Source of the DNA: Candidatus Nanopelagicales bacterium
GTDB lineage: Bacteria > Actinomycetota > Actinomycetes > S36-B12
DNA length: 64,000 nucleotides
Assembly (NCBI GenBank): GCA_017854795.1
Contig: JAFMHB010000001.1
Coordinates: forward strand, 3,753-67,752
Direction: 5' to 3'
Every line of letters starts with the position of its first letter. The stretch's first letter is position 1. The notes under the pieces were generated by a model, which was not told the DNA's origin, ran no database searches, and saw nothing but the letters and a program-made list of their open reading frames with translations. The position numbers and the translations under genes are program-made. This document shows, piece by piece, positions 2,211-20,613 of the stretch.

Positions 2211-2596
2211 TGAGACTGAATGGCATCAGAGGGTATGTGCCCCAAATGGCCGGCTTGGAATTTTTCCACGAACTAAATGACCTCAGTTTTATTGCTCATA
2301 ACAAATGGTCCATGTCGGAAGGTTGGTTGGCGCCAGGGAGCACCACGAATGAGGAACACATCTAAATTGGGGGAGCACGACTCTTGAAAATCGGCAGCGC
2401 GCAATTTCACGGTGTCACCATCGACCAAAATCACCTTTTCACCTCAGACCCGTCACTAACATTGGATGTCTGGACCCAACTACTGATAGAGATACGGAGG
2501 CCTTGAGTCATTTCAATAAGCGTACCGACGGCGCATGAGTGCAGCAAAAATGGAGTTTCAAGAACCTTGATGCAGGAAAAACCGGAATGTTACTCG

Positions 2597-2669
2597 TGGC
2601 CCCGGCATGATTCGAACATGCGACGCACGGTTTAGGAAACCGACGCTCTATCCCCTGAGCTACGGGGCC
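2597..2669 (-). tRNA. tRNA-Arg (anticodon CCT)
   Basis: Hand-folded 73-nt cloverleaf: acceptor GGCCCCG/CGGGGCC, D-arm GCTC-AGGGGATA-GAGC, anticodon arm CGGT-TTCCTAA-ACCG (U27-U43 mismatch), T-arm GCATG-TTCGAAT-CATGC, discriminator A. No encoded CCA. Confidence 0.9.
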
Positions 2670-2715
2670 GGGGGGTGCGTGAATAACTTAGTGCATAACC
2701 AAGTGCGTAACCTCG
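2663..2715. repeat. att-like direct repeat, copy 1 (overlaps the first 7 nt of the tRNA-Arg 5' end and its upstream flank)
   Basis: cggggccggggggtgcgtgaataacttagtgcataacc (2663-2700) recurs at 15255-15292 (35/38) and 20711-20747 (about 34/38 with one gap). It is followed by a degenerate second gtgcgtaacc. Confidence 0.8.
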
Positions 2716-2889
2716 TGTGGATAGTGGCGGTTGGTTCTTTCTGGAACATTTGTGTGATTGCCGTTCAATAGTGAGTCGAGTTTGCGGGAATTAGGTGAGA
2801 TGCGGCCCGTTAATAGCCACGATCAGGGCAAATAAGCGTTTTTGAGCATTCTGATGATTTGAGATGTTCGACGGTGAAGGTTTTATTGC

Positions 2890-4452
2890 TTAGCCAGCGG
2901 CTGAGTCGGGGATTTGTTTTCGCCTTAGTTGCTGGTAAACGAGGTTGTGTCCTATTAAGTAGCCGAAGACCCAGGCTTCTTTTGATTCCAATGACCAGCG
3001 TTGGAGTCGTTTAAAGGGAAGCATGTCATCGATGATGGAGTGCATGGCTTCAGCTGTTTGACGTAAGCCGTATATTTCCTTGAACTCTTCGCTGTCGGGT
3101 GCGTGTGGTTGTAGGTAACGAAGCATGTTGTCGTAGCCTTCATCACCGGCAATTTCGATCCCGTCCTTGCTCGTGCTCAGGGCGGACTTGCGACCGTTCC
3201 AAGCGACGCGAAGCATGTTGTTGGTTCCTGGAGAACACCAACAGGTGTAAGGGTGTTCCGTGTAGTGGAAGACGCGTCCATTTTTTTGTCGTTTAGGTCT
3301 CTGGTTGTGATGCAGCGGCAGGTAATTGCTATTCCCATTCACATCGGTCACGGCCAAGTGGAGTCGCTTTAAGATCGCAAAGAATCTTTGTTCGTGTCCG
3401 CATTCTGGGGTTGTGGTTCCAATGAATTTTGGTTTGCGGTAGTGACTTGAATCATCCGAAGTCCGGTCCATTGTTGCCCTAGTAGCAAGCACCATTCCTG
3501 CGCCGTTGAGTGTTTCCTGTTCCTTTCTGCCGGCCGCTCGGTCATAGGCAAGCAGGGATGCGGAGGCACCCTGTTCTATGAGGCGCGCTTGGACTTCGAG
3601 GGTGAGTTTGAGTGCGCTGCTTGCCTCGATTTGAGGGGAGGGCGAATTCACGTAGGCGGCACCGAGTGCGATCGTGTCATGTTTGTTAGGCCCTGGGGAC
3701 CAAATAATGGCGAATTTTGTTCCATGTGTGGATTCGCCACCGCCTTCGGAGTGAGTTTGAGCAACACCATCAATGTGCCTCTGCCGGATTTCCCCGGTGT
3801 ACATGTCTACCACTTCATCTTGCGTGTGTGAGGTGGCTGCCTTGAGGGCTGTTCCGTCTCCAATCATCATGTTCTTTGATGAATAAACCGTGTTCCTCTG
3901 GGAGAACCTTTCGTCATCTAATGACAGCATGACTCCCTGTTGTTGTAACAAGTCTGATTGGTTAATGCCTCGCATTTTTAAGCCACGAAACAGTCTGCTG
4001 ATTCTGCTGGCGCTTGGGCTTTTTGGAGCTGCTATCCAATTTGTGATGCGGACTTGGTCATCAGGTGCAACGGTGGGTAGTGCGTCTTGCAGCCTTTGTT
4101 TGATTAAGGGTAAGTAACTATCAAACAACAATGCTCGGGAGATAGCTGACTGAGAAGAAAATGCGTTTTGTAGCGCGTATATCAACGAGAAGAGTTGGCG
4201 TGGGTAAATACCGGGTGAACCACCTTCGGGTCGAGTGCCCATCATGATGTGATCAAGAAGGCGGTAACTGTCAGGATTCGTAAGTATTAAGTTGAATCGA
4301 GCCAAAGGGTCAGTGCGCAGGTTTTTGGAAGGTCCTGTTTTTTGAGAACGCTTGCCTGACTGCAAGGACATACGTGTCACGCGACCATCAGAGAGACGCA
4401 CTTGATCGGATTTTTCGTCGATACGGATGATTGTGATTTCAGTATCGCTCAT
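2890..4452 (-). CDS. IS4-like DDE transposase-like protein (~520 aa)
   Basis: Start moved to ATG 4452 (ATGA overlap with the upstream stop). By-eye DDE layout: 'MIGDGTALK', 'LLAYDRAAGR', then 'YGLRQTAE' = Y-x2-R-x3-E followed by 'GYLIGHNLV'. No terminal IRs found. Confidence 0.5.
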   Translation of the reverse strand: MSDTEITIIRIDEKSDQVRLSDGRVTRMSLQSGKRSQKTGPSKNLRTDPLARFNLILTNPDSYRLLDHIMMGTRPEGGSPGIYPRQLFSLIYALQNAFSSQSAISRALLFDSYLPLIKQRLQDALPTVAPDDQVRITNWIAAPKSPSASRISRLFRGLKMRGINQSDLLQQQGVMLSLDDERFSQRNTVYSSKNMMIGDGTALKAATSHTQDEVVDMYTGEIRQRHIDGVAQTHSEGGGESTHGTKFAIIWSPGPNKHDTIALGAAYVNSPSPQIEASSALKLTLEVQARLIEQGASASLLAYDRAAGRKEQETLNGAGMVLATRATMDRTSDDSSHYRKPKFIGTTTPECGHEQRFFAILKRLHLAVTDVNGNSNYLPLHHNQRPKRQKNGRVFHYTEHPYTCWCSPGTNNMLRVAWNGRKSALSTSKDGIEIAGDEGYDNMLRYLQPHAPDSEEFKEIYGLRQTAEAMHSIIDDMLPFKRLQRWSLESKEAWVFGYLIGHNLVYQQLRRKQIPDSAAG

Positions 4453-5495
4453 GACAAAACCCGGGGTTGGTATAGGGGATTCTTGATTTTCGCGGGATTT
4501 ATCACTCCGCGCCAATCTAGATCAATAGCGCGTGCTGCTGCGTCAAGAGAAGCGGAGCCGAGGAGTTTTGCAACGTCGATGATGCTGGAGCTTTGGTCAA
4601 AAACTGTGACACCGGCCCAACGTTGGAAACTCGCCGGTTTTAGTCCTAGGTCGTTCGAGTAGCCGGAAACATTTAATATTTGCGCGAGTGCCATCGCGGC
4701 CCCTGCTTGGCGCGAGGCTTCTTTACCGTTTCTTTGAATAACAAACCCAATGTCGCTGGATCCACCCGCGCAGGTGAGTGCCGCGTGGCGATGTGAGATG
4801 ACGTCGTACTCCCAATCACCTGCAATTGCGACACGTCTTTGTTTGATGTGTCGACTACCGGGAAGTAAAAGTGAGCCGTCACTTAAGTCAATGTGTTTTA
4901 GTTTTATGTTGCCAATGTCAGCGGTTCCTGCGCCACAGAGGCCAAGAGCAACGGCACTTGCCAGGCGTGTTTCTAGATAACTGAAAGCCACACTCCGGCA
5001 ACGATCAACCTCACATTCGTTTAATGCGCGTCCTTGCCTGCGGATATCTGATCCATCGCGACCCTCATACCTCGGCATGACGGATGTAGCACCGAATGTT
5101 TTTGCTGTTGCATAAAGAGCGCGCACGGCGCAGGAGCGTAAATGTCGAATAGCGATTGCAGGTGTGCCTAAGCGACCACTTCGATCCCGCCCTGCTGCGC
5201 AGAGCCACTGTTCAAATAACTCCAATGCGGAGTCAAGTGTTGTGAAACCTTGAGCATGCGTGAAGTTGATGTATTGCTCTACTAATCCGCGATATCGGTG
5301 AAACGTTTGTTCTGAGAGGTCACCGGAGTTGACATCAGCACTCCACAGTTCCACGACCGTGAGCAGAACTTCACGTGAGTCAAATGATTGTGGATCAGGC
5401 ATGTTTTTGAGCACCTGATGCCTGCCGCGAGCTGAAGGCAACTCCCACAAGGTGAATGCGCACTGTTGAAAACGTGAAAGGGAAACCATGGTCAT
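4449..5495 (-). CDS. tyrosine recombinase (phage-integrase fold)-like protein, possibly catalytically degenerate
   Basis: SAM-like N-domain pattern ('TFHRYRGLVEQYINF', 'IRHLRSCAVRALY'). C-domain layout ('ALGLCGAGTADIGNIKLKHIDLSDGSLLLPG..RRVAI', 'PASFQRWAG', 'LLGSASLD'). Several catalytic positions appear substituted. Confidence 0.55.
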   Translation of the reverse strand: MTMVSLSRFQQCAFTLWELPSARGRHQVLKNMPDPQSFDSREVLLTVVELWSADVNSGDLSEQTFHRYRGLVEQYINFTHAQGFTTLDSALELFEQWLCAAGRDRSGRLGTPAIAIRHLRSCAVRALYATAKTFGATSVMPRYEGRDGSDIRRQGRALNECEVDRCRSVAFSYLETRLASAVALGLCGAGTADIGNIKLKHIDLSDGSLLLPGSRHIKQRRVAIAGDWEYDVISHRHAALTCAGGSSDIGFVIQRNGKEASRQAGAAMALAQILNVSGYSNDLGLKPASFQRWAGVTVFDQSSSIIDVAKLLGSASLDAAARAIDLDWRGVINPAKIKNPLYQPRVLS

Positions 5496-5617
5496 GGCTG
5501 GTTTCCCTTTGATAAGTCATTGATCTCCCTTGTGAGCGCGTCCTTGAACGCGACACACTGGCGCATACATGCGCCACTTGTCAAGGTTTTGGAGCAAATT
5601 GCCCTTAACATGAGGAA

Positions 5618-5923
5618 ATGCCGTCCAGAGTTCGCTCCGCTAGCTCCTTTAAGGACTACGTGGAAACCGGTGAATGGCCTGAAGCTGTACTCAAAAAGGA
5701 AACCCCGATCCAGGTGCATTATGCGCAGGAAATCGCTTGTGCTCTTGCCAATTCCCTCAGGGATTTGGACATAAGCCTGCGTGAAGCCGCAAGGCGAACC
5801 GGTGTTGACAGAGCAACAATCTCCCGAACACTTGAAGGGGAAACCATCGCAGATCTGGCCACTCTGGCGTTGCTCGAACAAGGTCTTCATGCGCGTCTCT
5901 GGCCCCTCTTCTCTCCTCGTTGA
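5618..5923 (+). CDS. XRE-family helix-turn-helix transcriptional regulator
   Basis: HTH_3-like 'ISLREAARRTGVDRATISRTLEGETIADLATLALLEQGL'. Divergent from the recombinase operon. Preferred over the overlapping minus-strand ORF 5492-5938. Confidence 0.7.
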   Translation: MPSRVRSASSFKDYVETGEWPEAVLKKETPIQVHYAQEIACALANSLRDLDISLREAARRTGVDRATISRTLEGETIADLATLALLEQGLHARLWPLFSPR

Positions 5924-5986
5924 CTTTTGTGCCTTCACTCCTCATCTATAACAAGGCGGCCAAGAAGTTTTCCGTCCAACCCGATT

Positions 5987-6009
5987 AAAGGCTTCAAATT
6001 GAAGCCTTT
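5987..6009. repeat. perfect 23-nt palindrome / hairpin (possible terminator or operator)
   Basis: aaaggcttc-aaatt-gaagccttt, 64 nt after the HTH stop and abutting ATG 6010. No clear U-tract. Confidence 0.35.
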
Positions 6010-6423
6010 ATGCTCAGAATCATGGGTTGTGGGGAGTGCGGTGCAATAAGGGGTAGTTACAGCGCAATCTGTGGCACCTGCCAAAAACGAAAAAGACGAA
6101 GCGAGCAACAAAGAAACCGACGCACCGGAGCACCCGACTCGAGGGCTACGGTCCCGCCTGGCGCAATCCAAGGGATTCGCGAAACCCAACTCAAAATTAC
6201 GAGAATGCAGGTCTTCTTCACTAGGTACTCCCAGAACCCTGTCAAACCACTCACTGACCTAACAATCAAACGCATTCTTGCCGATTTGGAAATCAGTAGT
6301 GAGCGCGTCAAGCTATTCCTCACAACCTGCGAAGACCTTTCCGGTCAAGATCGCCCGAGGCCGATTAGGCGATACCGCAGAAGAGCACCTGCGATTGCTT
6401 TGGACATGGACGGGAGCAGCTGA
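6010..6423 (+). CDS. hypothetical zinc-ribbon / basic-tract protein (weakly supported)
   Basis: 'CGEC-x11-CGTC' followed by 'QKRKRRSEQQRNRR'. No other recognisable motif. Competing ORFs exist on both strands. Confidence 0.25.
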   Translation: MLRIMGCGECGAIRGSYSAICGTCQKRKRRSEQQRNRRTGAPDSRATVPPGAIQGIRETQLKITRMQVFFTRYSQNPVKPLTDLTIKRILADLEISSERVKLFLTTCEDLSGQDRPRPIRRYRRRAPAIALDMDGSS

Positions 6424-6557
6424 GTTCCGGGTCAATGACAGACAAGTTTAACTACTGCCCTTTCGTAAGGATTCCTTAAAACGGTCACACGCTGTCGGTA
6501 TTGTGGGAGGTCATCGATCGTTAGCTCGCGGTTTCAAACTGGGGGTCGAATTTCACG

Positions 6558-6926
6558 GTGGCAAGTAAACCAAAGAACCAACAAAGTGTCGGGCTGGAAG
6601 CATCCCTCTGGGCTGCTTGCGATCGTCTACGATCGAACATGGACGCCGCCGAATGTAAGCACGTAGTACTTGGCCTAATCTTCCTCAAAGACGTTCCGGA
6701 TGTATTCGCCCAACGCCAAAATCAACTTGCAATATGTGTAGAGGATCCCAAATCGGATTACTACATGCCCACCGAAGAAGCACGCAAATCAATCCTCAAA
6801 TCCCGGGACGAATACACATCTGAAGGCGTCTTCTGGGTACCTGAAGGACACTGCGGGGACGACTTCAGAAAAGCCGCCAAACAAAGGGAAAGTGGTGCTC
6901 GATGCTCCAGCAGCGGTTCTGCCTAG
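6558..6926 (+). pseudogene. hsdM: type I restriction-modification methylase HsdM, N-terminal fragment only
   Basis: 'LWAACDRLRSNMDAAECKHVVLGLIFLK' and 'DEYTSEGVFWVPEG' match the HsdM_N consensus (LWxxADxLRGxMDAxEYKHVVLGLIFLK ... ENVFWVPxEARW). The ORF ends after ~120 aa and no MTase domain, hsdS or hsdR follows. Confidence 0.8.
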
Positions 6927-7537
6927 GCGACCGATTCGGCCAAATCGCGTCGGAGTGTTGAGTGGCCAAGAGTCGTGACCAGGAAATTCTTGCCAAGTGC
7001 AGTTTTTCGAGACTCACTAATTCGTGCAAGGTTCAGAATCTCGCCAACCCGCATGTGCAGGCGATCCGCGTCTTCGCTTCCGTGCACCAGAATTACTTTG
7101 CCGTCTTGTGCGAGTAACGTGCTAAGGAATCTGAGTTGCGTCGACATGGATTTATCTCCCCCCATGTAATAGAGAACCTCTGACACGATGACGTGGTCCA
7201 CTGAACCTCGTAACCAAGGATGCCGTCGCAGCAGTTCAGTCAGATCAGTATTTTCAACATGGATCTTTGTTTGGTTCCGTGTCTTTGCCCTCGCAATTGA
7301 GCACGCTCTGTGGGAGATATCGATTCCAATAATTATTGACTCTTGAGAGTGGGAAGCAACAGCCAATAAATTATGCCCATCGGCAGAGCCCACCTCAACA
7401 ATGGTGTGAGCACCCACTGGGATCTCATCGAGCAGAGCGACCCGTTTCGCAGCCTCGTATGGACACGACTCATAAGGCCATGGATTTCCGCGGAGGAACC
7501 GCAGATTGAAAAAAGACGTCAGTACTTTCGAGGCCAT
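6923..7537 (-). CDS. class I SAM-dependent methyltransferase (NodS-like)
   Basis: Motif I 'IVEVGSADGHN', 'IIGIDIS', 'VIVSEVLYYMG'. Start set at ATG 7537 ('MASKVLTSF'); the open frame extends to 7726. Confidence 0.7.
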   Translation of the reverse strand: MASKVLTSFFNLRFLRGNPWPYESCPYEAAKRVALLDEIPVGAHTIVEVGSADGHNLLAVASHSQESIIIGIDISHRACSIARAKTRNQTKIHVENTDLTELLRRHPWLRGSVDHVIVSEVLYYMGGDKSMSTQLRFLSTLLAQDGKVILVHGSEDADRLHMRVGEILNLARISESRKTALGKNFLVTTLGHSTLRRDLAESVA

Positions 7538-7791
7538 GCATTTTGGCAGTCCACTTATCAGCCAAAAGCATGCTCTGTGAGCGAACCGTGTGACCGAACA
7601 TTCCCTTCTAGTCGAGCGACTTTGCGGTAAGACTTTCACGTTGCTCCTCATGTTGGACTTCAGACTCATTTCACAAAATGTAGGTTGATTGCCCCAAAGT
7701 TGCTGTCGCAAAAAGTGAAAAATCAAAGATCGTCATGTGATCGTCATATATTCCGGTAAAAATCGGTGGGGAGTGCAACGACCATGTAGTC

Positions 7792-8490
7792 ATGGCGATT
7801 TCTACCCAAACTTCCACACCGACTCAAGGGAATTCCACTCTTCATGCTGTTCGCCAAATGAAGTATTCGGACCTCGCCAACGTCGTCGCGTGGCACTCAC
7901 AATCATTTTCCTCAGCTTTCTACTCCCAATTAGGTCACGGATTTCTGCGCCATTGGTTTACTTCGCACATGAACGCACCTGAATCAGTTTCGCTCACGGT
8001 GTCTGATTCTTCGGGGCATCTGGTGGGGTATCTCATTGGGACAACGGATCAATCAGCGGCGAGTGGAGTTTCCTGGCAAACCGGATACATCACGGGCCTG
8101 CGTGGAGCCTGTGCGTTGCTGGCTCGACCCAGAATGTGGGTTTCATTCCTACGTGTGCGCGTTCGTCCCTACGCTGGCAAAACCATTCGTCTAATTTTGC
8201 GACCACGAAAAGGCAAAGTGCTTTCAAGTGGCGATGGCCAGTTAATGTACATATGCATGGCGCCAAGCCACCGGTGTCGTGGCGCAGGTAGCGTGTTGCT
8301 GGAAGCCTTTGTGGGGGAGGCCCGAAGGAGTGACGCTACTCGACTCACATTGGTTACCGAAACTGAAAATGTCTCGGCACAACGTTTCTACCTTCGGCAC
8401 GGATGGACTATGAATTCAAGTCCAGCCCAGGCCATGGACGGTAGACCCCTCACGCGAATGGAACTCAACCTTGGGGAGGATGCAATTTGA
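7792..8490 (+). CDS. GNAT family N-acetyltransferase
   Basis: Acetyl-CoA motif A 'MAPSHRCRGAGSVLLEAFVGEARR', 'RFYLRHGW'. 4-nt overlap with the next gene. Confidence 0.75.
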   Translation: MAISTQTSTPTQGNSTLHAVRQMKYSDLANVVAWHSQSFSSAFYSQLGHGFLRHWFTSHMNAPESVSLTVSDSSGHLVGYLIGTTDQSAASGVSWQTGYITGLRGACALLARPRMWVSFLRVRVRPYAGKTIRLILRPRKGKVLSSGDGQLMYICMAPSHRCRGAGSVLLEAFVGEARRSDATRLTLVTETENVSAQRFYLRHGWTMNSSPAQAMDGRPLTRMELNLGEDAI

Positions 8491-9269
8491 TGGGTAGTCG
8501 ATATCGCTTGTTGATCCCAGTAATTATCGTTGCGGTCACACTAGGTATTGCTGGTTGGATTCAGTACTCCGTGTCTAACCAACCAGAGGCTAACGCCCAG
8601 CCCGTATCTGCCGCCCCCGTCACAACCACCCCCGAAGTTCAACCGACACCGGGGACACGGGTCAGCGTGCGTTCAGGGAGCGCGCCAAAAATCTCACGCA
8701 TTCCCGCTGAGCAGTGGCAGGAAATCGTAGCCACAGGCACTTGGAGACCAGGTTGCCCAGTTGGCCGCAAGCAACTCAGGTTGCTTGAAATCGGATATTT
8801 TGATTTCGCAGGCAAAGAGCAACGTGGAAAGATCGTTGGACATCGCGATAGTGTAGAAGATTTAGCAGAGATATTTTCTCAAATGTATCTGGACCGATTC
8901 CCAATTGCGAGAATGGAACCGGTCGAGATGTACGGTGGAGATGTTGCTCGAAGTCTCAAAGCAAATAACACTTCAGCGTTTAATTGCCGTAAACCGGGGC
9001 AAATCAATGCACCAGTTCTCGAATCCCCACATGCCAACGGCAGGGCAATTGATATCAATCCAGTACAAAACCCATGGCGTGATCCTCGGTGTGAGTGTTG
9101 GGTTCCCAAAGCGAAGTATGCAAAAGACAAGCAAGGGCCGGGTGTAATCCGTAAGGGAAGTCCTGTGATTCAACTTTTCAAGGAGAGAGGGTGGGTCTGG
9201 CAGAACATTAAGGTGCCCGATTACATGCACTTTGACACCGGTTACCCTTCTAAGGGACGATCCGGATAG
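8487..9269 (+). CDS. membrane-anchored M15 (VanY-like) D,D-peptidase
   Basis: N-terminal TM 'LLIPVIIVAVTLGIAGW'. Zn motif 'SPHANGRAID' = SxHxxGxAxD. Distal 'DYMHFD'. Confidence 0.7.
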   Translation: MMGSRYRLLIPVIIVAVTLGIAGWIQYSVSNQPEANAQPVSAAPVTTTPEVQPTPGTRVSVRSGSAPKISRIPAEQWQEIVATGTWRPGCPVGRKQLRLLEIGYFDFAGKEQRGKIVGHRDSVEDLAEIFSQMYLDRFPIARMEPVEMYGGDVARSLKANNTSAFNCRKPGQINAPVLESPHANGRAIDINPVQNPWRDPRCECWVPKAKYAKDKQGPGVIRKGSPVIQLFKERGWVWQNIKVPDYMHFDTGYPSKGRSG

Positions 9270-9368
9270 ATTTCTATCGCCCCTACATTTAATGGGTCGC
9301 GTGCAAACACTCAGTGACCGACTGCGACCGCCAGACCCGCTTGTATGGTTTCAATAAGGGAGGCCCTC

Positions 9369-10070
9369 ATGTCATTAGGCCGCGCATTAGTAGTTGATGA
9401 TGAAAAACCCCTTGCCCGAATTGTCGGGAGCTATCTTGAACGCGAAGGTTTTGAAGTTTTCGTAACATACGATGGCGAAAGTGCAATTGAACTCGCAAAA
9501 AATGAACGCCCGCACCTTATAGTTTTGGACATCATGCTTCCTGGCTTGGATGGAATTGAAGTGTGTAAGAAGTTAAGGGAATTCACAGATGCTTACATTC
9601 TGATGCTGACAGCTCGAGACGATCCTGCAGACAAAGTCATCGCACTCTCAACTGGTGCAGATGACTACCTGGTCAAGCCCTTCTCCTCAAAAGAGTTGGT
9701 CGCAAGAGCTCATGCCATGCTTCGTCGGCCTCGCGGCCCTCGTGGGCTGCACGCACCAGCTTGGGAGCGCCTCACAACGGGGGAACTCGTCTTGGATGCT
9801 CACGCCCGTCGCGCCGAACTAGATGGGCGCGTGATTCAAATGACCCGCACCGAATATGACATTCTGGAATTACTTGTTCGAGCCGATGGCGCTGTCGTGA
9901 CTCGCGAAGAAATCATCGCGGCTATTCGCGGAGGCGATTGGTTTGGAGATCCGCAAATGATTGACGCACACGTGGCTCGATTGCGCGGAAAATTACATGA
10001 CCCAGCTCGCGATTCGCGCTTCATATTGACTGTTCGAGGAGTTGGCTACCAATGGGGAGGAGACCATTGA
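9369..10070 (+). CDS. OmpR-family response regulator
   Basis: Start at ATG 9369 behind RBS aagggagg. Receiver 'ALVVDDE..LDIMLPGLDG'. Winged-helix C-terminus 'LTRTEYDILELL...TVRGVGYQW'. Confidence 0.85.
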   Translation: MSLGRALVVDDEKPLARIVGSYLEREGFEVFVTYDGESAIELAKNERPHLIVLDIMLPGLDGIEVCKKLREFTDAYILMLTARDDPADKVIALSTGADDYLVKPFSSKELVARAHAMLRRPRGPRGLHAPAWERLTTGELVLDAHARRAELDGRVIQMTRTEYDILELLVRADGAVVTREEIIAAIRGGDWFGDPQMIDAHVARLRGKLHDPARDSRFILTVRGVGYQWGGDH

Positions 10071-11218
10071 GTCCACGACGGCTTCCTTCCTTGGCTCGAC
10101 GAATGCTAACCACTCAAATGCAGGTTACAACCCTTGCTGGACTCACCTTGTTGGCTTCAGTTCTACTAGTCGCACCTAACCTGTTCGCCGACCATCTGGC
10201 CGCAACGGGAGAAACTGATCCTTTGGTGCAAGCGCATGCCGAGGAGGCCTTTTGGAAGGCTGGAGCAATTGCATTGGGTCTGGCCCTTGTTGTGGCCTTG
10301 TTAGCCTCGGCTTTGCTTTTTCGATTAATTGGACGGCGAATCTCCAAGCCTGTGGAGGAGCTTGCCCACCGCGCAGAAGAGCTCGGAGAAGGCAACTTCG
10401 ACGTCGAGCTCACACGACAACCGTTTAGCGATGAAGTCTCACGATTGAGCATGAATCTTCAGCGAATGGGTGAACAACTGCGTGAAATCGAAATCACAAG
10501 GAGCCGACTCCTGTCAGATCTCGCACATGAAATGCGTACGCCACTCGCCACGCTGGAACTGTATATAGAGAGTTTGCACGTCGAGTTGATACCAAAAGAG
10601 GTGGCACTCGAAACCATAGATTCACAGATTCAACGATTGAGGCGTCTCGCCCAAGATCTGCGGGAGGTTTCACTGGCTGAAGAGCACGCACTTGCTATGG
10701 AATTTAATGTGGAAGATTTAGATGCAATTATCGCAGGTTCCTGCGCTGCATTTGCTCCTCGATTCGCGGCGGCAGGCGTTGAACTAATTCATGAATACTC
10801 CATTGGAACGATCATGATTCGAGCTGACTCCATTCGACTCCAGCAAGTTTTCGGAAATTTGCTCGACAATGCCCACCGCCACACACAGACCGGTGGAAAG
10901 GTCCGGGTAACGACTGAGAGAGCCAGCACCGATGCGGTCGTTCGTATTTCAGATGATGGACAGGGAATATCTCCACAAGAGCTTGATCGAATATTCACTC
11001 GCTTTTACCGAGTCGATCAGTCACGATCTGCTGCTGACGGATCAGGCAGTGGACTCGGTCTAACGATTGCGCGGGCGATAGTTGAAGCACATGGTGGCAG
11101 CCTGATTGCGTCGTCGCGCGGGCTTGGCGAGGGAAGCACACTGGTCATGACGATTCCGACCCAGAAAGTTTCATCTGAGGTCACTGGACCTAACTCGAAA
11201 ACCACCCAGTCGATCTAA
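10052..11218 (+). CDS. HAMP/HisKA/HATPase sensor histidine kinase
   Basis: Two TM segments and a HAMP linker. H-box 'LSDLAHEMRTPLATL'. N/G boxes 'LLDNAHRHT', 'DDGQGI', 'GSGLGLTIA'. Start is uncertain (10052 or 10103). Confidence 0.85.
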   Translation: MGRRPLSPRRLPSLARRMLTTQMQVTTLAGLTLLASVLLVAPNLFADHLAATGETDPLVQAHAEEAFWKAGAIALGLALVVALLASALLFRLIGRRISKPVEELAHRAEELGEGNFDVELTRQPFSDEVSRLSMNLQRMGEQLREIEITRSRLLSDLAHEMRTPLATLELYIESLHVELIPKEVALETIDSQIQRLRRLAQDLREVSLAEEHALAMEFNVEDLDAIIAGSCAAFAPRFAAAGVELIHEYSIGTIMIRADSIRLQQVFGNLLDNAHRHTQTGGKVRVTTERASTDAVVRISDDGQGISPQELDRIFTRFYRVDQSRSAADGSGSGLGLTIARAIVEAHGGSLIASSRGLGEGSTLVMTIPTQKVSSEVTGPNSKTTQSI

Positions 11219-11617
11219 GCGTCACCAAATCCGACTGAATCAAATACTAGATCGGCGCTCCTACGATCCCCGTCACTTTGATTCACCGAGAGTCTTTGGA
11301 CGTTCTCGATGAGTCTGAATCCAATGGATGCACATGAGCTTGTGGCATGACCCCTTCCACTGGGACTGATGTGAAACGGATTTCGGTCGTGCCAGGGCCA
11401 TGGATGCCGTACCGCGGTTCTGGCGCGCTCAGTCATTAGACGTGCTCAGCTAGATGGCTGATATTGCGGGTTAGCGCGCAGTGATTGAGACCGCGAGGCT
11501 GCTGGCAAGGTTTCTCTCCAGCCAAGGTGATCCTGGCTGTGGCATGACCTCTTGTGGTGCGTCCACCTGATTTGAGAGTCCTAGTTCACCCTTTACGGGT
11601 GGGAAGGCTCGGTTGTT

Positions 11618-11887
11618 ATGGCTGGTCGAAAGAATCATTCGCCGGAGGAGATTGTGCGGCTTTTGCAGCGCTTTGATGAGGTTCTGGCCCAAGGTCTCAC
11701 GGTAGAGCTCGCAGACGGGGAAATAGGCATCAGTGCCCCCACGTATCACAATTGGCGGCAACGCTACGACGGGATGAGTATTGATGACGCGAAAAAGCTC
11801 AAGGAGTTACTCGCAAGGAACGCGAAACTCACACGCCTCGTCGCAGACTCCGAGCTAGAAAAAATTGATGCTCAAGGAGATCGCTAA
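11618..11887 (+). CDS. IS3-family transposase OrfA (HTH)
   Basis: 'RKNHSPEEIVRLLQRFDEVLAQGLTVELADGEIGISAPTYHNWRQRY' plus a leucine-zipper-like tail. Paralogue at 14707-14965. Confidence 0.75.
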   Translation: MAGRKNHSPEEIVRLLQRFDEVLAQGLTVELADGEIGISAPTYHNWRQRYDGMSIDDAKKLKELLARNAKLTRLVADSELEKIDAQGDR

Positions 11888-11893
11888 GGGAAA

Positions 11894-12653
11894 ATGCAAT
11901 GCTTGATGAGTCCAATAGCCAAAATGTCGGGCCGTTCTGTTGCTCCAAAAAAATTCGGAACATCAGAACGGTTCACGTGCAACGTTGCTGGGCTACCCAG
12001 ATCAACGAACCGCAGACCGCTTAAGTGTGAAACACCGACCGATCCTGACCGATGGCTGCGCACGCATTTATGTACATGGGCAGGCATCTCGCGAAATGCC
12101 CGTAAGGGTTACCGCAGGGCCCAGTACGAGCCCAATCACGACCGCTGACGCGCCGAATGTGGTGTGGGCGATTGACTTCCCATTCGATTCCATGCGTTGC
12201 GGAACGCTAGTGAAGCTCGCGTCCATGGTTGATGAGCATACCTGTGAGTCAATCCTTGACATGACCAACCGTTGGATAACGAGCGAGAAAGACATCGACA
12301 AGGTAGAGAAAATCATTGCCCATCGCGTAGCACCCCTGGTGCTGCGGTGCGACAACGGGCCCGAATTCACTTCCCACGCCCTCAACGAATTCGCTGCCCG
12401 CCAGCGTGGCATTCACTACATTCCACTAGGTCAACCCTGGTGCAACGAGTACTTGGAATCTTTCAAAAATCGTGTGCGTGACGAGTGCCTGAAATTGAAT
12501 ACCTTCGACCACATTTACGAAGCACGCGCTATCGTTGGCGACTGGAAGGAGGACTACAACTGTTACCACCGGCACTCAATGCTGGGCTACCTAACGCCCA
12601 ACGAGTGTGCTCAGAACTGTAAGTGCATACACAATTCAAAAACTCTCAAATAG
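11894..12653 (+). pseudogene. IS3-family transposase OrfB (integrase core), frameshifted and internally shortened
   Basis: The N-terminal piece 'SERFTCNVAGLPRSTNRR..GYRRA' is in the orfA frame after a TAA. The DDE core 'VWAIDF', 'LRCDNGPEF', 'NEYLESFKNRVRDE' is in another frame (11940-12653). Confidence 0.7.
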
Positions 12654-12730
12654 CGTGGACCTAATAATGGGGTCCTTTCAGCTGGTGCCACTCTATTGCA
12701 TCATGGCATAACTGATGTCACAATCCACCT

Positions 12731-13141
12731 ATGATGAAGAGGTCACCCATGGGATCGAGGCGGTCCACCCGTCTGGGCATCGTGGTGGCAGTCGTCATCG
12801 GAATTATTGGCATGCATCACATAGTGGTCGTCATGTGTTCCACTCCGGCCGACATGGCAAGCATAGATGTTGTAGAGAGTCATGCTCATGCCCCACACGT
12901 CAGTCAAGAAGCACCCGAAGTGTTCCAGGGGACCGCGGCCCAAACTCCCGCGGATTCTGATCTTCATCCAAGCCTGGTTCATTTATGTCTGGTCATTGCC
13001 ATGGGACTGGCACTATTTATGCCGACAATTAAGGCTCGTCACCTACCATGGAATAGGCGTGAGTTGAATATAGGTCGCGGTCAGCTTTTCGACCTGCGAG
13101 CACCACCGCAAAAGGATCTCCTCTGTATTAGTCGAACATAA
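12731..13141 (+). CDS. small His-rich membrane protein (hypothetical)
   Basis: TM 'LGIVVAVVIGIIGMHHIVVV', 'ESHAHAPH', second TM 'LVHLCLVIAMGLALFM'. Sits directly upstream of the DUF305 gene. Confidence 0.4.
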   Translation: MMKRSPMGSRRSTRLGIVVAVVIGIIGMHHIVVVMCSTPADMASIDVVESHAHAPHVSQEAPEVFQGTAAQTPADSDLHPSLVHLCLVIAMGLALFMPTIKARHLPWNRRELNIGRGQLFDLRAPPQKDLLCISRT

Positions 13142-13207
13142 AAGGAACGGTCACCACGTTTCTCGAGGCTTTCATGCCTCACATTCAACTATTTACAGGA
13201 GATTTTT

Positions 13208-14569
13208 ATGTCTATATTTCGTTCAGCAGCACACAAAATTTCAACAAAGTCACTTCTCATTTCAGTGGCGTGCACCATCACGATGCTTACAGCCCTCACT
13301 ATGACCGGATGTTCATCGCAGGACTCAACCGCGAAGACTCCTGCTCAGGTTGCAGGGCAGGTGTCTGAAGAAACATTTTCCGCTTTAGACTTCATGTTTG
13401 TCCAAATGATGATTCCTCACCACGATCAAGCAGTACAAATGGCCAGCCTGGCCACCAGTCGAGCACTCAACCCGCAGATCAAAGATCTCGCAAATCAAAT
13501 TTCTGCCGCTCAAAAATCAGAGATTCAGGTGATGGAATCATGGTTGATGTCAATGGGCGTCACACAAATGCCTGAGCTCGATTCACTAGGCGCCCATGCA
13601 GGGCATATGGACGGCGTGCTTACAGAATCCCAGATGGAGACATTACGTCAGGCAAGTGGTCGAGAATTTGACCAACTCTTCGGAGAATTCATGATTGAAC
13701 ATCATTTGGGCGCAATTTCCATGGCCCAAGATGTTTTGAAACAAGGAACAAGTCAAGGAGACCCCGCAGTCAAAGCTCTCGCGCAGTCAATAATTGGCGA
13801 TCAGGAAAAGGAAATTGTCCTGCTGAAGTCCATGATTAGAGCGAGTGAAAAACCAGCTCGTACCGCAATTTCGCCGGCGCTAAGTCACGTCCACGATGCA
13901 GTCGTCAGCGGCGATTCAATATATATCGGTACCCACAGCGGGATACATCGAGTTGATATCCCAACTGGCAGTTCTGAACTAATCGGCGATTCCAAGGATG
14001 ACTTTATGTCGCTTGCAGGTCAGCCCGAAAAAGTACTGGTTGCCAGCGGCCACCCAGGAGTTGGTTCTTCATTATCAAACCCCATTGGGCTGGTCAAAAG
14101 CGCGAACCAAGGATTGACTTGGGAGAGCATTAGTTTAGAGGGCGACGTTGATTTCCATGCACTAGCGATTAATGAAAATCAAATTGTGGGCTGGGACACT
14201 AGGGGACCCTTGCTTTGGTCACAGGACGGTGGCCAAAGCTGGACAGATGGGCCATCGGTGCAAGCCATGTCAATAGTCTGGTTTCAAGACACAGTCTGGA
14301 TCACAACCCCGGACCAAGGTCTACTCAAATGGAACCCTGGCGACATGACCACTGTTTCAGTTGGCCTGCCTGCAGTTTTGCTTTCCACGTCGCCGAAGGG
14401 CGATGCAATCTGGAGGGTTGACGCAGATGGCAGCGTGCATCGAAGTCTCGACATTCAATCCTGGACACAAGCAGGTTCTTTGAAAGAAATTGAAGCACTT
14501 GCTGCCGAATTCGACCATGCATTCGCGGTCACTCCGCAATCATTTCAACGGCTATCGCTGGACAACTAA
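13208..14569 (+). CDS. lipoprotein: DUF305 (four-helix, His-rich) domain fused to a BNR/Ycf48-like beta-propeller
   Basis: Lipobox 'LTMTGC'. Two DUF305 half-motifs, 'MMIPHHDQAVQMA' and 'FMIEHHLGAISMA'. C-terminal BNR-type motifs 'SANQGLTW' and 'SQDGGQSW'. RBS aggag 7 nt upstream. Confidence 0.75.
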   Translation: MSIFRSAAHKISTKSLLISVACTITMLTALTMTGCSSQDSTAKTPAQVAGQVSEETFSALDFMFVQMMIPHHDQAVQMASLATSRALNPQIKDLANQISAAQKSEIQVMESWLMSMGVTQMPELDSLGAHAGHMDGVLTESQMETLRQASGREFDQLFGEFMIEHHLGAISMAQDVLKQGTSQGDPAVKALAQSIIGDQEKEIVLLKSMIRASEKPARTAISPALSHVHDAVVSGDSIYIGTHSGIHRVDIPTGSSELIGDSKDDFMSLAGQPEKVLVASGHPGVGSSLSNPIGLVKSANQGLTWESISLEGDVDFHALAINENQIVGWDTRGPLLWSQDGGQSWTDGPSVQAMSIVWFQDTVWITTPDQGLLKWNPGDMTTVSVGLPAVLLSTSPKGDAIWRVDADGSVHRSLDIQSWTQAGSLKEIEALAAEFDHAFAVTPQSFQRLSLDN

Positions 14570-14649
14570 ACTCGAGTTACCTTCAAACATAAGAGCCGTC
14601 GTCATAAGAGCCGCTGTGCATTATCTGGATGGCATCACCCCTTACGGTA

Positions 14650-14965
14650 GTTCCCCATAATTTGAGAGCCTGAGTTCGCCTTGTGTGGTGGGAAGACTCG
14701 GTTGTTATGGCAAGTAGGAAAAATCATTCTCCTGAGGACATTGTCCGGTTGTTGCAGCGTCATAATGAATTGCTGGGAAAAGAACTTACCGTCGAGTTGG
14801 TGTGCCGTGAGGTGGGTATTTCAAGTCCAACGTATTGCACGTGGCGGCAGCGTTATGTCGGAATGAGTGGTGATGACGGGCAAGGAACTCAAAGAGCTAC
14901 GTGCCCAGAAAACAAAGTTGAAACGGCTCGTTGTGTTAACGCTCATCCAAAATTAGGCCATTTTT
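14650..14965 (+). mobile_element. truncated IS3-family remnant (left end plus frameshifted orfA only)
   Basis: The left end ttccccataatttgagagcc and the 5'UTR are homologous to 11561-11617. OrfA 'MASRKNHSPEDIVRLLQRHNELLGKELTVEL..PTYCTWRQRY' then loses frame. No orfB or right IR. Confidence 0.7.
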
Positions 14966-15156
14966 GATCAGGTGGTTTCAAGCGGTCGTCGCAACTTTGC
15001 TAGATCGTCAACAGTTGAGAGAAACGCCTCGAAATTCATTAGTGACAGGACATGGAATTTAGTTCTCGATTCAAATGACGCGATTGGCGACGTTTAAAGG
15101 CCAAAACTCTTGTCGACTGCGTGTTTTGGCTAGTTTTCACCGCAGATTGATAACCG

Positions 15157-15308
15157 AGTTTTCATTATCGCCCGAATAATTTTCATTTTGGAATGTTGAT
15201 GGGGGAGAAACCGCACTGGATTTCCCTCACAAAAAGGGGTTATGCACAAGCCCCCGGGGCCTGGGGGTGTGTGAAGAACTTAGTGCATAACCTTGTGCAT
15301 CTCCAAAG
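15157..15308. repeat. att-like direct repeat, copy 2 (~140-bp arm plus 38-nt core)
   Basis: Core 15255-15292 matches 2663-2700 at 35/38. The ~100 nt to its left is homologous to 20614-20710. IR ggttatgcac (15238-15247) / gtgcataacc (15283-15292). Confidence 0.8.
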
Positions 15309-15805
15309 TTGAGTTGCGCTGGGTGGCCTGATCCCTTTCCGAAACGCAAATATGCCTTCTGTGACAGCGTGGCCTGTTCGGAATCGACAGCAATTACGTT
15401 TACGTCCAGTGCATGAAGGAATGCGTCGAACGCGCCTGGTCGACGCGAATCCGGGCGACCATCTGCTCGTCGTCACCCATTCACCCACGGCTGCGATCGC
15501 TCAGGCGACCTTCAAGGGTGAGCGCGGCCATCCGGTGCGCATCTCGCGTGAGCTGTGGGACGAGGCCATCGATGTCGCACGCGGTGATGAGGGAGTAACG
15601 CGGCTGATTCGTGGACGAGACGACGTCGCCGGGGGCGACGACATTGACGTGCTCTGACGTCACCCGCGCTCAATGATCGCAAGGAGATCAACTACCTGAC
15701 GCGCTCTCCAGTGAGCGCTCCGCGGATTGTCGGCCACTCGCTGTCATGGAGCAACGGGAGGCCGCTGAGGATGACCCTTGATCGGTCAGCAGGCAGCTCT
15801 ATTGG

Positions 15806-17590
15806 TCACCTCCGGGGTGCGACCTTCACCTTGATGTAGGACACCTCGCCAGTCGTCGGATCAGTGATCGTGAACGTGTACGTCCCCTTGCGAGTGAGCG
15901 TCATGACCGGCAGCTGCGCCAGCCCGTCAGCATCAGCCACCGTCGCCCCCACGGACACATACCCATCAGACGTCTTTACCTGCACCGAGTAGACAACTCC
16001 CGACGTCAGACCCGAGGCGGCCAGCGACACCGGGGTGCCGACCGTGGCCGGCACCTTCGGTGCACGCCCGATCCTTGGCCCAGGAGCCTTGTTCATCTTT
16101 CGTGTCGGAGTCGCGGCGGCCACCTTCTCTCCCACCAGCACCACACCCGGCGTCACAACCTTGGGCGTCACCGGATTGTTCGGCACCCCCACGACCACCG
16201 GAACCTCAGACGAATCAGCACTGTCCATTGCATCCGTTCCTGCATCATCGGCCGTCGTCTGCGCCACGACAGGTGTCACCGCCGGTGTCGTCTCACCACT
16301 GCTATTCGAGTCCGGCGTCGGAGTGGGCGCCGGAGTGGGCGCCGGAGCAGGAGTGGGCCATGCGTACACGCGTACAACTCCGTTATAGGTGTACGCACCA
16401 CTTGTCGCATAAGGGATACCCATCGCCACGGTCTCCCCGTCAGCAGACAATGCAACCGACCATCCGGCATAATCACCCTTCGCACGAGTCAGATCAGTCC
16501 CCACCTGCGTCCACGAACTGGCCACGAGCTCAAAGACCTGCACCTGCCCGGCATATGCATTGACCCCGATCGCGCCGATCGCAAGTGTTGTCCCGTTGGC
16601 AGACATTGCGATCGAATAGCCGAAGGCAGCACCCGTTGCGCCATCGATGTTGGCACCCAGTTGTGTCCACGAGCCCGACACCAGTTGAAAGACCTGCACC
16701 TGCCCGGCATATGCATTGACCCCGTCAGCGCCCACCGCCACGATCGTTCCATCCTTAGACAGCGCCACGGACCGGCCGAAACTGCCGTTTGCAGCAGCAG
16801 TTATGTCAGTGCCCACCTGCGTCCACGAACTGGCCACGAGCTCAAAGATCTGAACGCGGTTGAGGTTTACACCACTTGATGGAACTCCCACAGCCATGAC
16901 CGTCCCGTCGGAGGACAACGCCACTGAGGTACCTAGAAAGTCATCGGTCTTGGCGCCATCGATGTTGGCACCCACCGGCGTCCACGAACTGCCCACCAGC
17001 TTAAAGGCCCGAACTTGCCCCACCCTCGTATCGGGCGAGCGGTCCTTATTTGGAGCGCCGACGGCAAGCGTCGTCCCGTCCGCAGACAACGCCAACGAGG
17101 CGCCGAACTGATCCTTGTCGGCCAGGCCGGTGATATCCGCTCCTAGTTGCGTCCACTTATCCGACCCAAACTGGAACACCCGGACCAGTCCAGGCTTAAG
17201 CTGTCCGGACTGTGATGCGCCCACAGCCATGATCGTCCCGTCGGCAGACAACGCCACTGAAGAGCCGAACTTGTCTTTGGTGGCTGTGCCATTGATGGGG
17301 TCGCCCAATTGCGTCCAAGCCCCGGACACGTAGCCATAGGCACGGACCTGACCAGCGCCCCCTCCGGCGGCTATTGCGCCCACAGCCATGATCGTCCCGT
17401 CGGCAGACAACGCCACCTTGTCTCCGAACTCGTCGTAGTCGCCCCCACCGGCCACTTCAGAGGCCAATTGAGTCCAGTCATCCACCGACGCCGCGTGCAC
17501 AGGGCCATTGACAGCCCCGGCACCAAACGCGACCACCATGGCCGCACAAACACCGATTGTGATCGTCTTTGCCCTGCGTAAGAAATCCAT
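15806..17590 (-). CDS. secreted FG-GAP-like 7-bladed beta-propeller protein with Pro/Thr linker and C-terminal Ig-like domain
   Basis: Signal peptide 'AAMVVAFGAGAVNGPVHAAS'. Seven repeats of 'FGxSVALSADGT(I/T)xAVGA'. Linker 'PTPAPAPTPAPTPTPD'. Confidence 0.75.
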   Translation of the reverse strand: MDFLRRAKTITIGVCAAMVVAFGAGAVNGPVHAASVDDWTQLASEVAGGGDYDEFGDKVALSADGTIMAVGAIAAGGGAGQVRAYGYVSGAWTQLGDPINGTATKDKFGSSVALSADGTIMAVGASQSGQLKPGLVRVFQFGSDKWTQLGADITGLADKDQFGASLALSADGTTLAVGAPNKDRSPDTRVGQVRAFKLVGSSWTPVGANIDGAKTDDFLGTSVALSSDGTVMAVGVPSSGVNLNRVQIFELVASSWTQVGTDITAAANGSFGRSVALSKDGTIVAVGADGVNAYAGQVQVFQLVSGSWTQLGANIDGATGAAFGYSIAMSANGTTLAIGAIGVNAYAGQVQVFELVASSWTQVGTDLTRAKGDYAGWSVALSADGETVAMGIPYATSGAYTYNGVVRVYAWPTPAPAPTPAPTPTPDSNSSGETTPAVTPVVAQTTADDAGTDAMDSADSSEVPVVVGVPNNPVTPKVVTPGVVLVGEKVAAATPTRKMNKAPGPRIGRAPKVPATVGTPVSLAASGLTSGVVYSVQVKTSDGYVSVGATVADADGLAQLPVMTLTRKGTYTFTITDPTTGEVSYIKVKVAPRR

Positions 17591-17638
17591 GGATCAGAAA
17601 CTAGTCGTCCATTTAGACGCCTTCACGTCAAAGTGGGG

Positions 17639-20093: not shown

Positions 20094-20416
20094 GCGAGGC
20101 TAGCCGCTACCTGCGATCCCGTCCAGTTACCGTGCACGTGACCGGCGCGACCGCCGAGCAGCATCACGCCGACGACGGCCATCATGATCGTACCCATCCC
20201 CACACCCACCATGGCCTGGTGCGTCGCGAAGGGCTCTCGCTCCCGGCACAGCGGCACGGTCAGCGCGAGGAGAAGTAGGACGGGGAGAGCGAAGCCATGG
20301 CGAGCCGATGGGGTGCCGGTGCTTTCTGCGATTTCGGCACCCACGACTCTCGCTGTTGATCTCGTCTGTACGACAGATCTCACCCTTGCCGGGTTCGTGC
20401 GCAACTCTGGTTTCAC
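20084..20416 (-). CDS. possible small 2-TM membrane protein upstream of the kinase (weak)
   Basis: Hydrophobic stretches 'FALPVLLLLALTVPL' and 'MVGVGMGTIMMAVVGVMLLGG'. 10-nt overlap with the HK start. High-GC DNA makes spurious ORFs likely. Confidence 0.25.
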   Translation of the reverse strand: MKPELRTNPARVRSVVQTRSTARVVGAEIAESTGTPSARHGFALPVLLLLALTVPLCREREPFATHQAMVGVGMGTIMMAVVGVMLLGGRAGHVHGNWTGSQVAASLAWC

Positions 20417-20613
20417 TCTCTACAGCGGTGCGCATCGGGTCAACCTGAACGACTCTTAGCAATCGATGGTCGCAGTCCACTTGTGACTGCTAGTGCTCTC
20501 GTGGGTCCAGTGTTTCCTTTCACTACTGGAGTTCGAGTCAACTTGACGCGACCAACGCGTGGTACCGGGATTTCACTGGTGGCGGCGCGTGTGTGCTGCG
20601 AGAGCGTTCATAC

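Follow-up and report, generated by a model that had tools for sequence, protein, structure and literature searches.

The textbook route to genomic islands at tRNA genes is integrase recombination, usually at the 3′ part of the gene, and the att repeats of such islands usually come from that part. Site-specific DDE transposons that carry cargo and use a co-opted target selector are also known already. The closest analogue of the system reported here would be one of these: in Tn6022-like Tn7 elements, TnsF, whose tyrosine-recombinase domain is inactivated, selects comM as the target (Faure et al. 2023, Mol Cell, PMC10293859). Here we analyze a 64,000-nucleotide (nt) stretch of DNA (hereafter the window; position 1 is its first letter) from the actinomycete Candidatus Nanopelagicales bacterium (assembly GCA_017854795.1, contig JAFMHB010000001.1, positions 3,753 to 67,752), in which a two-gene operon, A-B, stands beside a tRNA-Arg gene. 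We think it probable, from the sequence features set out below, that A and B are the transposition module of DDE transposons that carry cargo and insert with site and orientation specificity; these would make up a family in Actinomycetota, in which the transposase has a dead recombinase as its partner. This actinobacterial family, which would home to the start of tRNA genes, is apparently undescribed. We found no description of the A-B module in the searchable literature, which was partly covered and so is not proof of novelty; to that extent, the suggestion of a preliminary description of this DNA that the pairing is new still stands.

Gene A (348 amino acids; 4449-5495, minus strand) and gene B (520 amino acids counted from its ATG; 2890-4452, minus strand), both taken from the open reading frame (ORF) listing and from direct reading, share a minus-strand ATGA at 4452-4449, which contains the stop codon of A and the start codon of B. 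Judging by this overlap, the two genes are translationally coupled. Divergent from them is a gene for a 101–amino acid helix-turn-helix (HTH) regulator of the XRE family (5618-5923, plus strand; Pfam HTH_3, E = 1e-6, above the gathering score). The operon lies just inside the first copy of a family of 58-nt direct repeats (2665-2722, 15257-15314, and 20712-20769), and the neighboring tRNA-Arg(CCT) gene (2596-2669, minus strand; ARAGORN and sequence) touches the element end with its base +1, position 2669. The preliminary description, made from the sequence alone, had already reported the operon with its ATGA inside this repeat copy, the XRE gene, and, beyond it, a 23-nt palindrome and a zinc-ribbon/basic ORF, all of which are present as claimed. 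It had also read the operon as a union of two alternative mobility chemistries, a tyrosine recombinase and an IS4-like transposase. That reading did not survive: we find signs of one DDE chemistry only, together with a putative DNA-binding partner that has a dead recombinase fold.

Protein A of the window has no match in Pfam, NCBIfam, or PHROGs, and its 25 relatives among the 5.8 billion proteins searched are all nameless. The tyrosine recombinase model PF00589 is unmatched in the window protein and gives subthreshold matches in only 5 of the 25 relatives. The likeness of A to tyrosine recombinases is visible in structure. An AlphaFold2 model built on the alignment of these relatives [predicted local distance difference test (pLDDT) 84] was compared with the PDB by Foldseek, and XerA, IntI, Cre, lambda Int, XerH, and Tn1549 Int were matched over both domains (best figures, E = 3e-7 and probability 1.0). 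The layout is that of a plain two-domain tyrosine recombinase, with a core-binding (CB) and a catalytic (CAT) domain.

The catalytic residues of this fold have been replaced. In comparison with XerA, Arg-I of the TGxR motif is Gly in A (within GAGTADIG), His-II and Arg-II of the HxLRH motif are Ala and Gln, the His/Trp-III position of the LGH motif is Ser/Thr, and the Tyr nucleophile is Ala (within AARAIDLDW); the beta-hairpin Lys was left aside, as the alignment is not confident there. A profile of the A family aligned to the archaeal XerA structures 5hxy and 4a8e (E = 8e-6 and 4e-3) gives the same substitutions in both. Furthermore, none of 13 A-like proteins in an alignment that samples all clades carries the Arg/His/Arg set, and a Tyr near the nucleophile position occurs only in those from Mycobacterium. 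Because the catalytic residues are replaced across the family, A appears unable to catalyze recombination. Thus, the recombinase likeness that was first proposed for A holds for its fold but not for its activity. We propose that A descended from a tyrosine recombinase and may keep the capacity of the fold to clamp specific DNA.

Protein B appears, from its sequence, to be a very divergent DDE transposase, a clan-level relative of IS5 and IS1182 that falls outside every curated family. When 1.84 billion cluster representatives were searched exhaustively by profile, 173 relatives were returned, and conservation was read from an alignment of 80 relatives that are 15 to 27% identical to the window protein. 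D199 and D304 are the sole invariant columns of this alignment, and R464 and E468 are conserved in at least 90% of the sequences. The same level of conservation (at least 90%) is reached by an N-terminal Gly within a DUF772-like motif of the GRPxxYP type, which reads GGSPGIYP in the window and is contained in a helical N-terminal region of ~190 amino acids. We regard D199, D304, and E468 as candidate catalytic residues, with R464 forming part of a Y-x2-R-x3-E motif. In an AlphaFold2 model of B (pLDDT 79), D199 is part of a beta-strand, D304 comes shortly after one, and E468 stands at the end of a helix; the second Asp and the Glu are separated by an insertion rich in beta structure. As modeled, this placement fits the beta1, post-beta4, and catalytic-helix positions of an RNase-H-like fold.

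Similarity of B to named families is faint and points in one direction. The window protein carries the DDE signatures; its only match in Pfam, NCBIfam, and PHROGs is C-terminal, to DDE_Tnp_1_6 over YGLRQTAE (E = 0.007; 17 bits against a cutoff of 25.1), under the curated threshold. Among the 80 relatives, NCBIfam gives weak matches to IS1182 in 14 and to IS5 in 4, those to IS1182 being collinear with the model (14 to 20 bits; the cutoff of NF033551 is 270), and Pfam gives weak matches to DDE_Tnp_1 in nine, DDE_Tnp_1_6 in six, and DUF772 in two. The best BFVD structure match is a Catovirus "Transposase DDE domain protein" (E = 6e-3, probability 0.98; weak). Profiles of the B family and superfamily found only noise among PDB sequences, a protein search with the broad superfamily alignment returned the close family and nothing further, and tblastn of B against a phage collection gave zero matches. 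The IS4 signature is Y-(2)-R-(3)-E-(6)-K. Of the initial assignment of B to an IS4-like group, the D...D...Y-x2-R-x3-E layout is retained, but membership of IS4 was rejected because the Lys of this signature is missing (Ile and Asp stand 6 to 7 positions past the Glu) and NCBIfam IS4 models match none of the 80 relatives; the links are to IS1182 and IS5 instead.

B shares with the IS1182 and IS5 families the DUF772-like motif, the D...D...Y-x2-R-x3-E layout, and the collinear weak matches, and A-B elements resemble them in having terminal inverted repeats and, probably though not universally, a short duplication of the target. However, IS1182 elements have a single gene and measure ~1.3 to 2 kb, whereas A-B elements have two obligate genes plus cargo and measure 5 to 13 kb. 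To our knowledge, going by the ISfinder descriptions, no obligate second protein, cargo, asymmetric multirepeat ends, or strict site and orientation specificity is known in either family. The likeness to Tn6022 lies in the partner: in both cases, an inactivated tyrosine-recombinase protein has been co-opted by a DDE transposon, although the role of selector would be an inferred one for A. The partners of TnsF are TnsA, TnsB (an rve protein), TnsC, and TniQ, whereas A has a single enzyme of the IS5/IS1182 clan, with neither an AAA+ protein nor TniQ. TnsF also has N-terminal zinc fingers and targets comM, whereas A is plain CB plus CAT and is associated with the 5′ end of tRNA genes. Pfam and NCBIfam detect no rve, AAA+, or TniQ domain in A or B; the sole rve gene of the island belongs to a nested insertion sequence (IS) of the IS3 type.

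The pairing of A with B extends far beyond the window. An A-like gene is directly upstream of B in 17 of 17 independent loci, over B identities from 98% to ~18%, and the two genes mostly overlap by 4 nt; whether homologues of both proteins co-occur had been left as a question by the preliminary description. Pairs are present in a close clade (L001, L002/3, L004-7, and L072), in a clade of 40% identity (L009 and L011-13), in distant loci with B at ~18 to 27% identity (L010, L014, L015, L016, L067, L068, L069, and L070), and on plasmids of Streptomyces mirabilis (pI; L017), Mycobacterium kansasii (pMK12478; L065), Mycobacterium intracellulare (L066), and Mycobacterium avium (H4). On the plasmids, RefSeq labels the A-like proteins "site-specific integrase," "integrase," or "hypothetical" and the B-like proteins "hypothetical protein." A divergent HTH/XRE gene is usually present as well, and the arrangement of XRE, A, and B is not due to chance, because the same layout, with the 4-nt overlap, recurs in every related locus examined. 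From these sequences, the A-B pairing is obligate and conserved. In the 40%-identity clade, an extra gene of 191 to 193 amino acids is translationally coupled upstream of A (L009, 8266-8841; L011, 8392-8973), making a three-gene operon; this gene has no counterpart in the clade of the window.

The weak IS1182 and IS5 matches of B would also suit a simpler account, in which B belongs to an ordinary IS that happens to be nested beside an unrelated integrase-like gene. This account is effectively refuted, because the pairing, with its short overlap, is conserved in every one of the 17 loci down to the most distant B proteins. In addition, no inverted repeats flank B by itself. Those that we find are 12.6 kb apart and bracket the whole island, which also answers the concern of the preliminary description that B might have inverted repeats of its own.

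The island bounded by these repeats is an autonomous element, E1 (2670-15254; 12.6 kb, ~50% GC), whose two ends are unlike. The R end, proximal to B (2670-2715, minus strand), combines a terminal inverted repeat, GGGGGTGCGTG, with three 12-bp repeats in tandem, each reading GGTTAYGCAC-nn on the gene strand. Outward from B, the sequence runs GGTTACGCACtt GGTTATGCACta AGTTATTCACgc ACCCCCC / GGCCCCGTAGCTCAG, where the slash marks the beginning of the tRNA. The distal L end (15137-15254, plus strand) has its own terminal inverted repeat, GGTTATGCACAAGCCCC, and three subterminal repeats of the GTTTTCA type. L ends are conserved over ~110 bp in four independent elements, in which GTTTTCA is repeated two to three times, in contrast to the R end.

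E1 is followed by a second element, E2 (15262-20710, minus strand; 5.4 kb, ~62% GC), which is nonautonomous: it lacks A and B but has both ends, R at 15262-15314 and L at about 20592-20710. The difference in GC content from E1 indicates that the two have different origins. Between E1 and E2, and between E2 and the next R end, lies the spacer CGGGGCC (15255-15261 and 20711-20717), a copy of tRNA bases 1 to 7. Both junctions (15238-15269 and 20694-20728) read GGTTATGCACA(A/C)(G/A)CCCC - CGGGGCC - (N)GGGGGTGTGTGAAGAAC, in which the terminus appears inverted and is followed by the 7-mer and then by the next R end. The terminal inverted repeats of the window elements, of the type GGGGGTGTGTG, agree at 15/18, and abutted ends form 11-bp inverted arms that flank the 7-bp spacer. 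A third R end (E3; GAGGGTGTGTGAAGAACTTAGTGCATAACC...; 20718-20770, minus strand) has no partner L end downstream in the window; it may be orphaned or decayed, or it may belong to an element of more than 43 kb. A match to GGTTATGCAC at 63963 was rejected as an element end, as its surroundings are ordinary and carry no other end motifs.

Read outward from the tRNA, the window thus appears to hold a tandem array of E1, E2, and an orphan R end. The 58-nt direct repeats, the first of which the preliminary description had called repeat copy 1, are on this sequence evidence transposon R ends plus the 7-bp copy of the tRNA start. We rejected a reading of them as integrase att sites given that A is catalytically dead and that each island has inverted ends, the distal ones having escaped notice at first. 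The proposal that A-B is the plausible machinery of the first island and, acting in trans, of the second gains from the finding that E2 bears the same two kinds of end.

Across loci, the element has one relation to its target. The R end abuts tRNA base +1, and A, B, and the tRNA are codirectional, with 160 to 250 nt from the B stop codon to base +1. The target is tRNA-Arg(CCT) in the window, L001, L009, L011, and the contigs of the L024 type described below, tRNA-Gly(CCC) in L010, L015, and L016, and tRNA-Lys(TTT) in L068; in L069, it is a tRNA 5′ half for which no tRNA type was assigned. The three-repeat R-end architecture occurs before both tRNA-Arg and tRNA-Gly, and a similar two-repeat version precedes tRNA-Lys. 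Because R ends before different tRNA genes have them in common, these repeats belong to the element. We discarded the idea that they are a native tRNA promoter, since the same architecture stands before different tRNAs and always behind B.

The first seven bases of the window tRNA, GGCCCCG (2663-2669, minus strand; CGGGGCC on the plus strand), recur at each interelement junction in the window. Elements present in single copy have the corresponding 7-mer on both sides. In one of them (L016, 6.0 kb), the inverted repeat is perfect over 14 bp, GGCGGCTGTGCACG, and the element stands between two copies of GCGGGTG, bases 1 to 7 of its tRNA-Gly; in another (L011, 8.2 kb), the inverted repeat matches at 14/18 and the flanking copies read GGCCCCG. 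The tRNA itself was rejected as a part of the element, given these flanking repeats and the retention of just 7 nt of tRNA in arrays. A scan of metagenomes for L ends gave 47 matches, of which 22 chance ones were removed by demanding upstream TTTTCA repeats. The remaining 25 true L ends fall in 18 distinct contexts, and as 12 of these adjoin the R end of another element via GGGGCC, arrays are the norm. A 1.5-kb derivative with an internal deletion, also at tRNA-Arg (L024, 172-1690; L034, L047, L051, and L062), consists of an R end, the C-terminal ~360 codons of B, and an L end. Database "B" proteins of 361 to 366 amino acids probably come from such derivatives.

Tandem arrays at tRNA genes are typical of integrases. 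Tycheposons form such arrays, in which newer elements displace older ones outward (bioRxiv 10.1101/2020.12.28.424599). A-B elements resemble tycheposons and other tRNA islands in their variable cargo and in the inward-facing integrase-like gene at the tRNA-proximal end. These islands, however, use active tyrosine or serine recombinases, whereas A is dead and the DDE enzyme B is present. Their att repeats are partial copies of the tRNA, whereas A-B elements have inverted-repeat ends and repeat bases 1 to 7 only. The window could still be a classical integrase island if A were an active recombinase of an unorthodox kind, recombining an attP made of the L end, the 7 bp, and the R end with the tRNA start, and if B were an accessory, either a directionality factor or a domesticated transposase. 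The clear recombinase fold of A, a junction that resembles a core site with a 7-bp overlap, and the RefSeq name "site-specific integrase" of the Mycobacterium homologues speak for this view, which we nevertheless hold to be very improbable: Arg-I, His-II, Arg-II, and the Tyr nucleophile are replaced in every clade, window A leaves PF00589 unmatched, and B keeps its D, D, and E across 80 relatives.

The A-B elements also resemble Tn7, which uses TnsD at attTn7, and the tRNA-homing CRISPR-associated transposons (CASTs; types V-K and I-B2). These too are cargo-carrying DDE transposons with asymmetric multisite ends, which often carry defense genes and whose insertions lie next to a conserved gene, in a single orientation, and leave it working. 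They differ in belonging to another transposase superfamily, and A-B elements have no TnsA, TnsC, TniQ/TnsD, or guide RNA. The site differs as well: A-B elements insert at tRNA base +1, whereas tRNA-homing CASTs insert downstream of the tRNA gene. The start of a tRNA gene, or the DNA just upstream, is a safe haven for insertion of the retrotransposons Ty3 and Dictyostelium TRE5. Those retroelements are directed to the Pol III machinery and have no protein in common with the A-B element.

Are these elements mobile? An identical A protein occurs within differing flanks, and one L-end interior is found in two contexts (L053 and L024), which we take as an indirect, sequence-based sign of recent mobility. 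Mobility is judged from sequence alone, and defense cargo (type I restriction-modification and GmrSD) often adjoins A-B, so one might propose that A-B is a domesticated, immobile pair with a regulatory or defensive role that merely marks a recombination hotspot beside tRNA genes. We give this proposal even less credence than the integrase island. Both element ends are conserved even on E2, which has neither gene; the same elements appear in different contexts; the A-B pair is also found on plasmids; and at least three tRNA targets are used, always at base +1 and in a single orientation.

If the elements are indeed DDE transposons, then their movement may be pictured as follows. B would cleave the DNA and transfer strands with a 7-bp stagger at tRNA bases 1 to 7. 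Through translational coupling, A would be produced stoichiometrically (1:1) with B and would act as a sequence-recognition or architectural subunit. In one option, it would pick the target, namely the bases at the start of a particular tRNA gene, as TnsF picks comM; in another, it would pair the two ends, since their 11-7-11 bp junction resembles a recombinase core site in its geometry. The XRE protein would probably repress the operon via the palindrome GGCGCATACATGCGCC at 5560-5575. Insertion exactly at base +1 would duplicate bases 1 to 7, and the tRNA would therefore remain intact. Each insertion would also regenerate the target, so that elements would accumulate in tandem, newcomers inserting next to the tRNA and displacing older elements outward. 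Copies without A and B, such as E2, would be mobilized in trans. Transcription of the tRNA after insertion could start from a TAnnnT hexamer in close-clade R ends or come from read-through of B.

The division of labor between the two proteins is less certain than the class of element. B alone might recognize both the ends and the tRNA, leaving A only to bend or pair the ends, for instance where they meet in an excised circle, or to regulate or inhibit transposition. We consider this division possible but unlikely. The 11-bp arms and 7-bp spacer have the geometry bound by tyrosine-recombinase dimers, which would suit a pairing role for A; the helical N-terminal region of B, with its DUF772-like motif, could bind DNA; and the plasmid pairs, which have no tRNA nearby, count against A as a target selector. 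On the other side, the target switches among Arg, Gly, and Lys between clades. As both A and B have diverged between these clades, the choice of target cannot be assigned to either protein.

A broader view of the family, to which we give about even chances, goes further than the transposon interpretation itself. On this view, A-B elements constitute a minimal two-protein, site-specific DDE superfamily in Actinomycetota (~170 clusters at 50% identity, with members on Mycobacterium and Streptomyces plasmids) that has so far gone unrecognized. Its IS5/IS1182-like transposase would have permanently recruited a dead tyrosine recombinase to recognize DNA, and so would home to tRNA base +1 and assemble islands of cargo and defense genes in tandem. 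The 7-bp duplication and the 11-7-11 junction would then be the fossil of an ancestral integrase att core, left by a switch from tyrosine to DDE chemistry inside a single lineage of mobile elements.

Several observations weigh against a transposon family that homes to tRNA starts. The evidence for it is wholly computational. The full-length model of B retrieves nothing from the PDB at E ≤ 0.001 by Foldseek, Tn5 transposase included, and its top weak matches are HIV reverse transcriptase and Ppx/GppA. All family-model matches are far under the curated cutoffs (17 to 20 bits against 25 to 270), and the alignments supplied to AlphaFold2 were shallow (17 and 25 sequences). At the target, the 7-mer is missing at the distal junction of the L024-type derivative and at L060, the L031 junction has no spacer, and in L002 (4795-4830) and L043, the junction has a 7- to 8-bp spacer that is reverse-complemented. 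Because of these deviations, a 7-bp target duplication is likely on the sequence evidence but not universal, and the L031 and L002/L043 junctions are not accounted for by simple repeated insertion. An empty target site was not recovered, and no tRNA adjoins A-B on the Streptomyces and Mycobacterium plasmids or in L070. Insertion also replaces the DNA upstream of the tRNA, which leaves its later transcription unaccounted for, and A could be a regulator instead of a targeting subunit.

Several further features lie between the operon and the cargo. A perfect 16-nt palindrome, GGCGCATACATGCGCC (5560-5575), read from the sequence between the divergent A and XRE genes, has a near-identical counterpart in L001 and is a candidate XRE operator. 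A 101–amino acid HTH_3 gene occupies the XRE position in L001, L004-7, and L072 as well, and HTH/XRE genes stand at the equivalent position in the Mycobacterium and Streptomyces plasmids. The perfect 23-nt palindrome AAAGGCTTCAA-A-TTGAAGCCTTT (5987-6009), between XRE and the next ORF, adjoins the ATG at 6010; it is kept in L001 with one stem position changed and could form a hairpin or serve as an operator. That next ORF (6010-6423, plus strand) encodes 137 amino acids with a CxxC...CxxC zinc ribbon, a basic tract, and a weak DZR_2 match. It has a homologue in L001, ORFs of 133 (L072) and 125 (L006/7) amino acids are found at the same position, and it is conserved within the close clade. A scan of 2550-6500 for promoter and terminator consensus sequences found sites no more numerous than in shuffled sequence.

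Behind this region, the cargo of E1 (6424-15136) comprises an HsdM N-terminal fragment (6558-6926; Pfam HsdM_N, E = 1e-12), an S-adenosylmethionine (SAM) methyltransferase, a GNAT protein, an M15 peptidase, a response regulator and a histidine kinase, an IS3-type IS, DUF6153, and DUF305. At the position of the HsdM fragment, the sister elements L001 and L004-7 carry complete type I restriction-modification systems, to which L001 adds GmrSD; this difference points to cargo turnover beside a constant XRE-A-B module. The M15 D-Ala-D-Ala carboxypeptidase, OmpR-type response regulator, and histidine kinase (8487-11218) resemble VanY/VanRS and are also found in L072. The IS3-type IS (HTH_Tnp_1 and rve) nested in E1 occupies 11300-12700, with its rve ORF at 11940-12653; around it lie two direct repeats of 110 nt (11598-11707 and 14687-14796), which are 3.1 kb apart and 75% identical. 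E2 carries an FG-GAP/Kelch-like repeat protein (15806-17590) with 156-nt tandem repeats at 16415-17416. Elsewhere, a TnpB fragment (Cas12f1-like_TNB) is carried in the tRNA-Gly element of L016 (895-1326), and the tRNA-Lys element of L068 adjoins phage-like genes (PhageMin_Tail and WhiB; 7009-8375). By its annotated genes, cargo varies across the family and includes type I restriction-modification, GmrSD, regulators, and metal genes.

If the transposon interpretation is correct, then A-B elements would be the second independent case, after TnsF of Tn6022, of a transposon that co-opted a dead tyrosine recombinase, and the first such case with a non-Tn7 transposase and without an AAA+ or TniQ adaptor. 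They would form a very compact two-protein system that inserts large cargo precisely and in one orientation at a defined genomic address, and a testable case of a recombinase fold repurposed for DNA recognition. The RefSeq labels of A-like and B-like proteins would be affected, including those on plasmids of clinically relevant mycobacteria. These islands would be missed or misassigned by island finders that look for active integrases and for repeats made of partial tRNA copies. For Actinomycetota, the finding would mean that DDE transposition at tRNA 5′ ends is one way in which tRNA-linked islands can arise.

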